The position numbers and the translations under genes are program-made. A model generated the notes under the pieces. It was not told the origin of the DNA, made no database searches, and was given only the letters and a program-made list of their open reading frames with translations. A stretch of DNA of 64,000 bases. Origin: Octopus vulgaris (Eukaryota). Positions 24,491 through 41,346 of this stretch are shown here, in pieces (within the stretch, counting starts at the first letter, position 1; each line of letters begins with the position of its first letter). The stretch is from NCBI GenBank assembly GCA_951406725.2, contig OX597832.1:28148001-28212000 (forward strand), read 5' to 3'.

Positions 24491-24865
24491 TTATAGAATG
24501 TCGTCCAAATGCGCCGGGTTGGCATAGGTGCTATCCGAAACCATCGGGTAAGTTGGCACAGATGCTTCGGGACCTGGCGTTACTGGACGACTACTCCCGG
24601 TTACGTTTCCCATAGTCTCGGCATCGCTTGGATATGGTGCTCCACAGGTCTGGCTGTTGCCCCGCTGCAGGAGGACGGCAGGCTTCGGTGGGGTCGGGTG
24701 TGTCTGGCTCATGCCTCCCACTATCACCCCAGCTGGAGTCCCTACTGATAGGGCTGTAGGATTCATTGACGTTGGAGTTGTGATTGGCGTCATTTTCGAA
24801 AACTGACTCAGTTTCTGTTCAGCTTCCCTCTGTTTCTGCAAGGTCTGTCGAAGAGTTCTTCGCTT
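24491..24865 (-). CDS. GRIN1: GluN1 terminal coding exon (cytoplasmic tail)
   Basis: Acceptor ttcttttatattgcag, phase 0, 124 codons KRRTLRQTLQKQREAEQKLSQFSKMTP...YANPAHLDDIL*. GC-rich non-repetitive island; joins in frame to ...RWRGNIE. Confidence 0.85.
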   Translation of the reverse strand, partial: KRRTLRQTLQKQREAEQKLSQFSKMTPITTPTSMNPTALSVGTPAGVIVGGMSQTHPTPPKPAVLLQRGNSQTCGAPYPSDAETMGNVTGSSRPVTPGPEASVPTYPMVSDSTYANPAHLDDIL

Positions 24866-24935
24866 CTGCAATATAAAAGAACAATTTGTCATTAACAAAC
24901 TATGAAGAAAATGTATATCTGTGTGGTACTTACAC

Positions 24936-24969
<34 letters not shown>

Positions 24970-25501
24970 CAAGGAAAAATTATAAAAAGGCAGAATGCTA
25001 AATTGAGGGTAAATTTTAATGAAAATGGGTGTATGGAAAATTTTGAAAAATCAACAAAATATATATATATTAATTCAAACCGGTTTTCGTCACAATGTGA
25101 CTTTTCAAGAATTGTAGGGTGAAAAGAAAAAAATTTTTATGATTGAGGAGGGGGAAAAACAACACAACCCCACCATTTATTGATTTATATATACATATAT
25201 ATAAACAAAGGAACATTTGTTTAATTACAAGCGTTGAAATGTATATTGTACGATGCAAACAAGAAGATACTTTTTCAAACGCAGAATTGCCATCAGAATA
25301 GCAGAAATGCTGGGTTAAAAAAAAAAAAGGTGGAAAAATTTGTCACCAACCAACAATGGGATTTGAACTCACATCCCCTAAGACTCCAGTTGAGTGCTTT
25401 ACCATTAAGCTAAACAGTTCATTGACAAATTTATCTGTTGATCTAGATACTAAATAGCTAATTGAAACAACATATACATACATACATATACATACATACA
25501 T

Positions 25502-25540
<39 letters not shown>

Positions 25541-25557
25541 CCAGATATATATTCCAG

Positions 25558-25591
<34 letters not shown>

Positions 25592-25719
25592 ATGTGTGTG
25601 TGTGTGTGTGTATTTGGGGCAGTCCTCTGCCTGGCCAGCTCCTGACAACCCGTCCAACCCAGGCCAGCATGGAGGGCAGACATCAATTGACGATGCCATG
25701 TATATAAGGGAGAACTACG

Positions 25720-25949
25720 TTAACCCTTTCATTACCAACCCGTCTGAAACCGCCTCTGGCTCTGTAGTACAAATGCCTTGTTTTCATAAGTTTTGAATTA
25801 AAATCTTCCACCAAGCCTTAGTCACAATTTATGTTCCTAACAATAGCTTAATGATAACTAAGTTATTTTACTAAATTCTTTGTTAATTTCAAAATTAATT
25901 GAAAGAAACACAGAGCATCTGAACAGAAATATGGTAACAAAAGGGTTAA
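25720..25949. mobile_element. piggyBac-like MITE (TTAA ends, CCCTTT...AAAGGG termini)
   Basis: ttaaccctttcattacc...ggtaacaaaagggttaa; same family at 38720-38949, 38971-39200, inverted at about 27900-28055 and 63875-64000. Confidence 0.85.
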
Positions 25950-27418
25950 GGGTACGTGTGTCTGTGGAATACTCAAGCACTTCCACATTAACTTCATCAG
26001 AAGGCCGTTCCATTGTTGCAACCATCAGACTGCCACATTTTGTATGCGTATGTATACACACACCTGCACAACGTGCGTTTATCAACACACATCCATATAT
26101 GTATATATGCGTTGATAACATACATAGGAAAATATATCATAGACATTTAGTTATGTGTTATACACATATGTACAGGAGAATTATAAAAACGTGTGTACAT
26201 GCGTCTGTATATATACGGAGAATTTGTGTTGATAATTAAGGACAATTTATGAGTGTAGTGGGTGGTGGTCGTGGTGAGAGTGCACTTAACATTTCCTTTC
26301 CAAAATATACACACTGGCCTACATATATGTAAACATGCATATACACAGCTTGTCTAAGAGTGACTATTAGGTGGGAGTGGGTGGGGGTGTGGTGGTGGTG
26401 GTGGTGGTAGAAGAGAAAGAGAGAGAAAGAGGGAAATGTTTGTGTGTGTGAGTGTGTATGTGTGTGTGTGCGTGTGTGTGTGTTTGCAAATACATATGGT
26501 TGTGTTTATACTTATGTATGTATGTGTATAATATATATATGTCACACACATAGATATGCATGTGTTAATGTATATGTGTGTGTGTGTTTAGTATATATGT
26601 GTGCTTATATGTATGTATGTATGTGTGTATATATATACATCTTTGTGTTTGTGTGTGTGTGAGTGTGTGAGTGAGTGTGTGCGTGCAAATACATATGTTT
26701 ATGTTTATACTTATGTATGTATATGTATAATATATATATATATATCCCACATAGATATGCATGTGTTAATGTGTGTGTGTGTGTTTAGTATATATGTGTG
26801 CTTATATGTATGTATGTGTGTGTGTGTATATATACATATTTGTGTATGCGTATGTGTGTGTGTGTGTTGAGGAAGTCAGTTGTGGATGATGTAACTTAAT
26901 TGACCACACCTAAAGGAAAGGTCAAGGGTAGATACCCCTCCACCCCACCTCCTTCTGTCCCCACTTCCTCCCACAACAAAACACAGGGTAGAGGTGGGAG
27001 GTAGATGTAGAGTGGGGGTAGCTAACGGGGGGGGTGTAAGAGGAGGGTGGATGGGTAGGTGGATGGGTAGGCGAGTGGGTGGGGGTGGGGGTAGGACAGG
27101 AAGTGAAGTAAATAACTACTTCCTGACAAGTAGACAGGAAGTCTTAGAGAATGGTGAGGAGGATGGCAGTAATAGTTGGGGGTGGTGGTCAGAAATGGAA
27201 TGTTGCGATGTCGTGATGTTCGTGCCTCAAGTTCTGTACAGGTTCCAATGCTACTGGGGTTGCAGCATTATTGGTGATACCATTATTTTAAAATTATAAT
27301 AATCTCCACCACCACCGCCACCACCACCACCACCACCACCAGCACCAGCACCATCACTACCACCACCAGCACCACCACAAACACCAGCACCACCACAAAC
27401 ACCACCACCACCACCACC

Positions 27419-38719: not shown

Positions 38720-39200
38720 TTCACCCTTTTGTTACCAACTTGGTTGAAACCGGTTCTGGCTCTGTAGTACAAATGTCTTGTTTTCATAAGTTCTGAATTA
38801 AAATCTTCCACCAAACCTTAGTCACAATTTATGTTCCTAACACTAGCTTAATGATAACTAAGTTATTTTACTAAATTCTTTGTTATATCTAAACTTAATA
38901 GAAAGAAATACAGAGCATCTCAACAGAAAAATGGTAACGAAAGGGTTAAAATGTATAAAAGAAACAATTCTTAACCTTTTTGATATCAACTTGACTAAAA
39001 CCATTTCTGGCTCTGTAGTACAAATGTCTTGTTTCCATAAGTTCTGAATTAAAATCTTCCACCAAACCTTAGTCACAAATTATGTTCCTAACACAAGCTT
39101 CATGATAACTAAGTTATTTTACTAAATTCTTTGTTATATTTAAAATTAATTGAAAGAAACTCAGAACATCTCAAAATAGATACAGTAACGGAAAGGTTAA
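38720..39200. mobile_element. Two tandem piggyBac-like MITE copies
   Basis: Each about 230 bp, similar to 25720-25949. Confidence 0.85.
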
Positions 39201-39536
39201 ACTAAGACAATGCCTCCTGTATAACAGAACACTTCACAGGGCCATATAAAAAAAAAGGCTTTGTGTGAAGGTCAGCTCAACTTGTGGCAAAGGCCTAGCC
39301 TGGTTTTTGAACCAGCATGGGACACACAGACATTATATAATCTCATATGAGTCACCATGTGTATCACATACTTCCAGAAACTACTTCACACTGAATGCAG
39401 CATTTCCCTCCCACTCCATATTGATTATTGTCTCCATTATGATGTTTCACAATTGTTAGGAGTGGGGGGCGGGGGTGAATTGTGGACAATTTTTTTTGTT
39501 TGTTTTCAGACAATTGCTATTTCTTACTGTCTACTT

Positions 39537-39835
39537 TCATCGTCATCATCATCATCATCATCATCACCCTCATCATCATCATCGTCGTCGTCGTCATCAT
39601 CATCATCCTCATCCTCATGATCATCATCATCGTCGTCATCGTCATCATCATCATCATCACCCTCATCATCATCATCGTGGTCGTCATCCCCGTCGTCATC
39701 ATCGTCATCCTCATCCTAATCATCATCGTCATCATCATCCTCATCATCATCGTCATCATCATCATCGTCATCATCATCGTCATCGTCGTCATCGTCGTCG
39801 TCGTCGTCGTCGTCATCATCATCATCATCATCATC
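39537..39835. repeat. (CAT/CGT)n microsatellite
   Basis: Direct inspection. Confidence 0.95.
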
Positions 39836-40114
39836 TACTTCAATGTTGCTATCAGTATTAACCTGCACTCACACAGGCAGCCGTTACCACTCAAACGGCA
39901 CTGCTCAGCCGAGGGGGAAATAATTCCCGACACTACGACTACACTACAAAAGCACTGCTGGCCTTGACCATCACTAAAGAATGGACAGCTATTGTGAGAT
40001 ATAATTTTCAGTCATATGTGCCTACATTTACATAGTGTTTATCCTTTCATAGAAAAACAGTACTCAATATCCAGTTATAGTGGAAGAGTGTATAGAGCAT
40101 AGATTTTATATGCT

Positions 40115-40160
<46 letters not shown>

Positions 40161-40334
40161 TAAATATATATTTATATATGTATGTATCCGTTCGGTATCC
40201 GTGTATGTCTCCACTGTCCTGTTTTTGTTCCTTCTTTGTCCCTCCATAAATCCTAAATTTTATTTTAGAATTTATGGGAGCCACAGTCTTTGAAGACTCA
40301 TTCTGTGCTTGAGGGGATCTATTGAGTCAAATAA

Positions 40335-40780
40335 ATCAAAATCAAATGGAAATTGTAGTTGTGGCCGATACCAGTGCTGGTGGCACACAATAAGCACCAT
40401 TCATATGTGGGTCGCTGCCAGAGCAGTCTGACAGGCTCCCCATGTTGGTGGCACATAAAAAGCACCATCTGAACATAGTCGGTGCCAGTCCCCCACACCC
40501 CGACTGGCTCTTGTGCCAGTGGCACATAAAAAGCACCATCCAAATGTGGCTGATGCCAGGGCTGCCTGACTGGCTCCTGTGCCGGTGCCACGTAAAAAGT
40601 ACCCACTACACTCTTGGAGTGGTTGGCGTTAGGAAGAGCATCCAGCTGTAGAAACATTGCCAGATCAGATTGGAGCCTGGTGCAGCCTCCTGCCTGACCA
40701 GACCCCGGTCAAACCGTCCAACCCATGCCAGCATGGAAAACGGACATTAAGCGATGACGACGACGATGATGATGATGATG
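40335..40780 (+). mobile_element. V-like SINE with internal tandem units
   Basis: ggttggcgttaggaagagcatccagctg...catggaaaacggacattaagcgatgacg. Confidence 0.8.
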
Positions 40781-41262
40781 TTAGTAAGTGAATGTAAATT
40801 TGTGTATGTAGTAACAGGTAACATTTTTGGTCCATACCTTAGGTTTCGTACAGTGTACCAACAGAGAAGTGTAGACAAGCATGCCAGCTGAAAGAAATCT
40901 TCCTCACAATCTTACAAAAACACATACATTACACACACACACAGAGACACACATGTATGTATATGTGTATCAAATACGAACTAAATGTTAGAAAAGCGTT
41001 GAGTGTACATCAGAAGAGAAAGTTTGAGAACCTACATGCAAACTAATTCTTGTTTCAAACCAAACCAAACCAAAACCAAAACCAAAAGCCAAGAAAATAT
41101 TTAAGGAATTTTAGTCTGAGAAAGTATTAGCCAGCATATCACGTGAGAAAAAGCCGTTGTTTAATAAGGAATTATTAGAAACGGAATGGGCCATGGGAAA
41201 ACTTAGTGAGTGGATACATATATAGGAATGTATATATGCATGTATATGTTGCACCACATTAC

Positions 41263-41346
41263 CACATCGGCATCATCGGATGGTGCCATTTTAAGAGTCT
41301 TCAGGTCTTTCATCTCCCGCCATGATTGGCGCAATGTTTTTCTCTT
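41263..41346 (-). CDS. GRIN1: Candidate alternative GluN1 C-terminal exon (cassette, or alternative last exon reading to stop at 41203-41205)
   Basis: Acceptor tctgttctttgcag, then phase 0 KRKTLRQSWREMKDLKTLKMAPSDDADV; the first 7 residues mirror the exon at 24865. Possible donor GTG|gtaatg after 41263 (84 nt); otherwise reads on VMWCNIYMHIYIPIYVSTH*. Not in the ORF track. Confidence 0.7.

Follow-up and report, generated by a model that had tools for sequence, protein, structure and literature searches.

GluN1 in Octopus carries an optional 28-residue cassette after C0, probably an ancient duplicate of the tail-exon start

The gene for the NMDA (N-methyl-D-aspartate) receptor subunit GluN1 (GRIN1) has its 3' end on the minus strand of a 64,000-nucleotide (nt) stretch of the 2.8-Gb Octopus vulgaris genome (contig OX597832.1, positions 28,148,001 to 28,212,000), which is called the window here. 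We find that an 84-nt exon of this gene (exon A) is an optional in-frame cassette of 28 amino acids (aa) between the calmodulin-binding C0 segment and the terminal exon (exon B). By their sequences, the starts of exons A and B are very likely paralogous, and the explanation that we favor as a whole is that the cassette is probably an ancient duplicate of the start of exon B, adding a second basic tryptophan helix after C0. Exon A is real, spliced, and conserved; RefSeq already annotates it, and in snails it is a known short-tail variant. What is new, as far as searched, is the duplication origin, the lophotrochozoan spread, and the use as a cassette in all cephalopod records seen.

Results

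Exon A is spliced in frame between C0 and exon B

The C0 exon closes with ...WRGNIE at a phase-0 donor (GAG/gtcagt, 59991), and exactly two good phase-0 acceptors that open KR(K/R)TLRQ follow, at 41346 (exon A, 18,645 nt from the donor) and at 24865 (exon B, 35,126 nt). Their exons start KRKTLRQSWREMK and KRRTLRQTLQKQR, respectively, which confirms what a preliminary description of this DNA had noticed. Among the 2,881 minus-strand AG dinucleotides below the donor, these are the only sites that reach six or seven matches to the 7-mer KRKTLRQ (7/7 for exon A and 6/7 for exon B), the next best site having 4/7. No third exon of the KR.TLR type was found in the window, where a 4/7 match at 18082 and two plus-strand matches are noise. 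Different codons are used at five of the six residues that are identical between the two starts, again as described earlier, and the DNA matches at 14 of the first 21 nt and at 31/84 across the length of exon A. The donor of exon A (GTG/gtaatg) is in frame, and reading through it would yield 47 aa. Exon A falls outside the set of open reading frames of at least 90 aa, and it had rightly been called invisible to that track. The features that matter here are as follows.

59992..60137, minus strand: exon encoding M4 and C0 (calmodulin-binding), phase-0 donor at 59991; PF10562, letter for letter in five Octopus proteins
41347..59991, minus strand: intron between C0 and exon A, 18,645 nt, GT-AG; junction in contig X3
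41263..41346, minus strand: exon A, 84-nt, 28-aa in-frame cassette with a basic start, Leu5, Trp9, Met12, and Leu15, and an acidic end; contig X3, identical in O. sinensis isoform X1 (XP_029648108.1)
41203..41262, minus strand: read-through extension of exon A to a stop (47-aa tail); support not found, low-complexity intron-like sequence
24866..41262, minus strand: intron between exons A and B, 16,397 nt, GT-AG; junction in contig X3
24491..24865, minus strand: coding part of exon B, a 124-aa terminal tail ending DDIL, plus the stop; identical in O. sinensis X1/X2 and in the O. vulgaris model CAI9736683.1

A public contig of 3,493 nt (contig X3) joins C0, exon A, and exon B at exact splice sites. 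It matches 41263-41348 with zero differences, one of its loose ends being the end of the C0 exon and the other the start of exon B; the type of the run was guessed as RNA, and we take the contig to be a spliced transcript because both introns are skipped at GT-AG ends. Two of the junctions proposed earlier, 59992>41346 and 41263>24865, are therefore present in contig X3. Four runs were compared with exon A, and X1, X2, and X13 gave no contig on it (X2 gave two low-complexity fragments of 30-34 nt with three differences each), contigs being unable to show absence. Exon B was present in 20 of the 24 listed runs, a listing that was not used as evidence because it had no RNA run on record as a holder.

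The skipping of exon A rests on annotation and on relatives. In both O. sinensis and O. bimaculoides, exon A is the sole difference between the RefSeq isoforms X1 (1,016 aa) and X2 (988 aa) (XP_029648108.1/XP_029648109.1 and XP_014790759.1/XP_014790760.1), an in-and-out pair for exactly this cassette that comes solely from automated annotation. CAI9736683.1, a model from O. vulgaris, is without exon A; among decapodiform proteins, P0081, P0082, P0088, and P0093 contain it, and P0001 and six more, 993 aa each, are without it. Exon B follows in all six cephalopod proteins that contain exon A. None of the six has a short terminal A tail and no contig shows one, contigs being unable to exclude a 47-aa read-through tail. 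Both octopus forms thus share the C-terminus DDIL. Of the tail arrangements suggested previously, the 28-aa cassette stands and the switch between a short and a 124-aa tail does not; a switch in PDZ binding in octopus, with the same C-terminus in both forms, is not borne out either. Two candidate splicing signals were dropped as too weak: one TGCATG at about 41040, against 0.18 expected per 300 nt downstream, with YCAY at background, and a partial likeness of the exon A donor to the CaRRE2 octamer as it appears in the consulted part of PMC1790950.

A-type and B-type starts occur across lophotrochozoans

A species-wise check was made on hand-picked species with at least two distinct tails and without a motif filter; A-type and B-type starts occur together in 15/15 mollusc entries. 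Outside cephalopods, A is usually terminal, with a length of about 22-44 aa (39 records, duplicates included); internal use occurs in Lingula, in two Physella models, and in one Batillaria prediction. Among annelids, the terminal tail of Lamellibrachia is A-type and the tails of Capitella and Ridgeia are B-type; the brachiopod Lingula carries an A-type start, and the optional exon that nemerteans have in this position is more diverged. In the 62 arthropod records, taken one per cluster, the only start is B-type and none has Trp9, though unseen isoforms could exist. Because the starts recur across molluscs and in an annelid and a brachiopod, with arthropods having B only, the A/B pair predates the mollusc radiation and likely also the lophotrochozoan radiation, more than 500 million years ago. 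Exon A is thus conserved in related species, and the idea that the tail switch was built locally or newly in octopus is not borne out, given this spread and the short forms of Aplysia and Lymnaea in GenBank.

Some of these records have peculiarities of their own. Haliotis has further annotated tails at the C0 donor (P0104-P0106, P0109), the last few residues of internal A differ from those of terminal A in Physella (P0027/P0148), and the arthropod-like protein P0266 has a 15-residue insert ahead of the B motif. Paired GluN1-like models in Elysia crispata (P0016/P0018), E. chlorotica (P0017/P0020), and Tubulanus (P0050/P0187), whose longest contigs are equal in length within each species, suggest tandem gene duplicates.

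The start of exon A resembles the single arthropod tail start

A profile was built from 32 distinct arthropod starts only, and the 24 distinct A starts scored against it were picked by motif, from proteins of at least 500 aa; 48 "other" and two unclassified tails (intron read-throughs, nemertean, vertebrate, and distant forms) were set aside. All 24 A starts score 18.5-30.8, above the null maxima of 15.8 (n=2,923) and 14.25 (n=11,046), and in the unfiltered species-wise check the 15/15 mollusc entries hold an A start at 18.5-27.4. Positions outside the motif filter are conserved as well, with Ser/Thr at position 8 and Leu/Met/Ile at position 12 in 24/24 starts each. Exons A and B occupy the same acceptor slot in the same phase, and Lingula A retains the arthropod-like Thr4 together with Trp9. 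Other annotated tails at the C0 donor score low on the profile. It is very probable from these comparisons that an early lophotrochozoan duplicated the acceptor and the first ~10 codons of what had been the one ancestral tail exon, and the duplication proposed in the preliminary description is well supported by the arthropod profile and the unfiltered check.

The 6/7 identity in octopus itself had been read as selection keeping the copies alike, and this part did not hold. Thr at position 4 occurs in only three of the 24 distinct A starts (two from Octopus, and Lingula), with other residues in decapodiforms, gastropods, and bivalves. Since Thr4 is absent from most molluscs, the octopus match overstates the case for duplication, being partly a feature of the lineage, retained or regained. 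As in tandem duplicated alternative exons (PMC8373072, PMC9741552), A and B are neighboring homologous exons of the same phase with alternative use; unlike those, their homology is limited to the first ~10 codons, and unlike mutually exclusive tandem exons, cephalopod A and B are joined in one transcript (contig X3), being exclusive only where A is terminal.

Discussion

Short-tail variants of molluscan GluN1 have been deposited before. The Aplysia "splice form" (AAO62106/AAO46102) and the Lymnaea "NR1-2 splice variant" (AAT40576/ABB97044) in GenBank use the same two exons after the C0 boundary as octopus; their 28-aa short tails are A-type, and KRRTLRQTLQKQ opens their long tails just as it opens octopus B. 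Proteins of these snails that use A end in it and lack the long tail, whereas the octopus and cuttlefish proteins carry A as an insert and retain the tail end. Octopus A has the molluscan NR1-2-type pattern after C0 (K-R/K-K-x-L-R-x-S/T-W plus a hydrophobic position 12) but not the terminal use of that type, since the six cephalopod proteins and contig X3 continue into B; minor terminal use is possible. We infer that the Aplysia variant Grin1-2 is the A tail. According to the section of PMC5225553 consulted, which cites Ha et al. 2006, the two Aplysia Grin1 splice variants vary by ganglion and Grin1-2 is highest in the buccal ganglion. The literature searched (subscription journals and supplements lay outside its scope) yielded no account of the duplication origin or of how cephalopods splice the GluN1 tail, and Ha et al. 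2006 may already comment on the likeness of the tails.

The claim that vertebrate GluN1 is spliced at the same boundary is confirmed by the PDB alignment and the comparison of isoforms: the octopus donor lines up with the end of human-type C0, and the vertebrate isoforms diverge right after that end. In the parts consulted, PMC6080888 reports that splicing of the vertebrate GluN1 tail alters calmodulin and PSD-95 binding and surface distribution, and PMC6080888 and PMC4245912 tie the 37-aa C1 to calmodulin, kinases, and trafficking. Like octopus A, vertebrate C1 (GRIN1 exon 21) is an optional in-frame basic cassette directly after C0. However, C1 as described in those parts has 37 aa with KKK and RRR, compared to 28 aa and one KRK run only in octopus A, which resembles the downstream exon B rather than C1; and the C2/C2' choice (exon 22) changes the PDZ-binding end, whereas the octopus forms both end DDIL. 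Exon A resembles C1 in where it sits and in being optional, yet we do not class it as C1, as length and retention motifs differ. An independently built switch had been suggested, and an origin apart from vertebrate C1/C2 looks right. The start of C1 scores 11.8 and an internal C1 window 13.5 on the arthropod profile (P0251, P0270), above 99.9% of null windows and below the null maxima (15.8/14.25). The C1 start and the stretch around its KKK thus weakly resemble the protostome tail start, which hints at an old shared motif or an internal repeat.

Under the explanation favored here, the duplication would have kept a K-R-K/R-x-L-R-x-S/T-hydrophobic helix that continues C0 whichever exon follows, and the copied exon A would later have gained its own Trp9 and hydrophobic position 12. 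Gastropods and bivalves mostly end the protein in A, losing the long tail, and cephalopods splice onward from a donor near the place where the gastropod and bivalve A stop lies. Skipping A would presumably cost nothing, with both exons continuing one basic helix out of C0. Inclusion would add Leu5, Trp9, Met12, and Leu15 on a basic background, then an acidic linker, as well as a second Thr-x-Arg. Hydrophobic residues on a basic background are a pattern typical of calmodulin-binding helices, and Thr-x-Arg is a protein kinase C (PKC)-type site. Placed directly behind the calmodulin site of C0, exon A would likely form a second helix that is basic and carries a tryptophan. A tentative but plausible consequence, by analogy with the vertebrate tail, is that inclusion may alter how the C0 end binds calmodulin or alpha-actinin and undergoes PKC-type phosphorylation, and hence calcium-dependent inactivation and surface delivery. 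We would favor tuning of calcium-dependent inactivation over retention in the endoplasmic reticulum (ER) because octopus A is without the KKK and RRR motifs of C1.

Several observations weigh against this explanation. Inclusion of exon A was seen in only one of the four runs, and the direct junction from C0 to B (59992>24865), the third of those proposed earlier, was not seen in reads of the runs examined. The alignment of A and B covers only ~10 residues, with the likeness of the DNA fading beyond 30 nt; the motif-based picking of the A set inflates its profile scores; and the A-like exons of nemerteans reach only 6.7 and 12.0, which is less than the null maximum. Functional data on any cephalopod form were not found in the literature examined, and the hydrophobic moment of exon A is not significant compared to shuffles (p 0.06-0.16 for nine molluscan A starts, 0.52 for Lingula, and 0.68 for Lamellibrachia). 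Between two Octopus species, A differs at 3/28 residues versus 2/124 for B (Fisher p 0.044), and all A changes lie after residue 10; the second half is therefore loosely constrained. A predicted complex of calmodulin, Ca, and the exon A residues (score 0.08, mark 0.34, with the alignment unused and the controls unfolded) is evidence neither way.

The short alignable stretch gives some room to the alternative that A and B are not paralogues at all, A having been exonised from an intron and having converged on B because exons after C0 must continue the basic helix. The flanking DNA is without likeness (15/40 nt upstream), and Thr4 in octopus may be a convergent gain, decapodiforms having Lys or Arg there. 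We nevertheless regard convergence as improbable. The motif is not required of every exon after C0, because other annotated tails at this donor are without it (Haliotis X3-X5, Lineus X11, vertebrate C2-type), and eight to nine A positions match the arthropod single-exon consensus. The faster change of A than of B and its appearance in a single run could also mean that the octopus cassette is a tolerated relic with little function; this is hardly likely, as octopods and decapodiforms, which are long-separated lineages, have both preserved the frame, the acceptor, the donor, and the first nine residues.

The remaining alternatives concern how the cassette is used. Exon A could double as a terminal exon in octopus, giving a switch between a 47-aa and a long tail like that of Aplysia and Lymnaea. 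A is terminal in the 39 non-cephalopod records, models of Physella and Lineus use A or an A-like exon both ways, and the read-through frame reaches a stop with an ATTAAA at 41165 (minus strand) ~40 nt beyond. This hexamer is not beyond plausible chance, being presumably common in AT-rich DNA, the extension is low-complexity and intron-like, the six cephalopod proteins run on into B, and the sole contig on A exits at the 41263 donor, all of which makes terminal use a poor candidate. Somewhat less improbable, though still unlikely, is that the cassette mainly signals trafficking or retention in the ER, in the manner of the KKK and RRR retention motifs that the consulted part of PMC4245912 describes in vertebrate C1. 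Inclusion does double the tribasic start (KRK plus KRR), but a tribasic run already opens both forms, octopus A is without KKK, RRR, or R-x-R, and a retention motif would not need the invariant Leu5, Trp9, and hydrophobic position 12 of A.

Gene context and other observations

The identity of the gene follows from M4 and then the C0 calmodulin-binding segment (PF10562). GluN1 is the best match, with E 5.8e-293 for protein P0097 in the PDB alignment, and Pfam CaM_bdg_C0 (PF10562) is found in the M4-C0 exon (60137-59992) with E 1.7e-14. The C0 and tail exons are identical letter for letter to O. sinensis and O. vulgaris proteins. Further features of the gene in the window are listed below.

62430..62602, minus strand: GluN1 coding exon, S2 ligand-binding lobe; translation, AG/GT ends, GluN1 match in the PDB alignment
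61221..61325, minus strand: GluN1 coding exon, S2 end to pre-M4
24232..24490, minus strand: 3' untranslated region, inferred minimum extent from the length of contig X3 (634 nt past exon A), if colinear

No Pfam family matched exon A, exon B, or six intronic open reading frames. The non-microsatellite open frames at 10208-11304, 30542-30940, 48317-48685, and 54448-55020 resemble decayed pieces of mobile elements, with no Pfam match in the frames tried. Elsewhere, at about 105.10 Mb of G000:C1, two neighboring single-frame genes with four EF hands (L012, L013) that look like calcineurin B are possibly retrocopies. At least three calmodulin-like multi-exon loci (L002, L003, L004) were noted as well. 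Among the seven 993-aa decapodiform proteins (P0001, P0084, P0085, P0087, P0089, P0091, P0092), 7/7 variable positions are of the A-to-G type, a type that makes up 15/75 one-step residue pairs, and six of them lie in exon B. This pattern fits A-to-I recoding of the GluN1 tail, though the differences may also be alleles.

Implications

The vertebrate GluN1 tail sets the calcium-dependent inactivation and trafficking of NMDA receptors. The gain here is an evolutionary framing and a testable hypothesis rather than a new part of the gene, the exon being annotated already: one evolutionary event would unite the splice variants of Aplysia and Lymnaea, the RefSeq isoforms of octopus, and models scattered among annelids and brachiopods. 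A broader and more speculative proposal, which we consider doubtful at present, is that duplication of the start of the GluN1 tail exon gave lophotrochozoans a C1 of their own and that in cephalopods this exon serves purely as an insert, adding a second calmodulin/PKC module with the scaffold-binding end kept. Such a plasticity switch would be regulated and convergent with mammalian exon 21, and it may have been built on a motif of the bilaterian ancestor that also left a trace at the start of vertebrate C1. In any case, the two octopus isoforms, with and without the 28 aa and with the same end, offer a clean comparison for asking whether cephalopod NMDA receptors have a C1-like switch.

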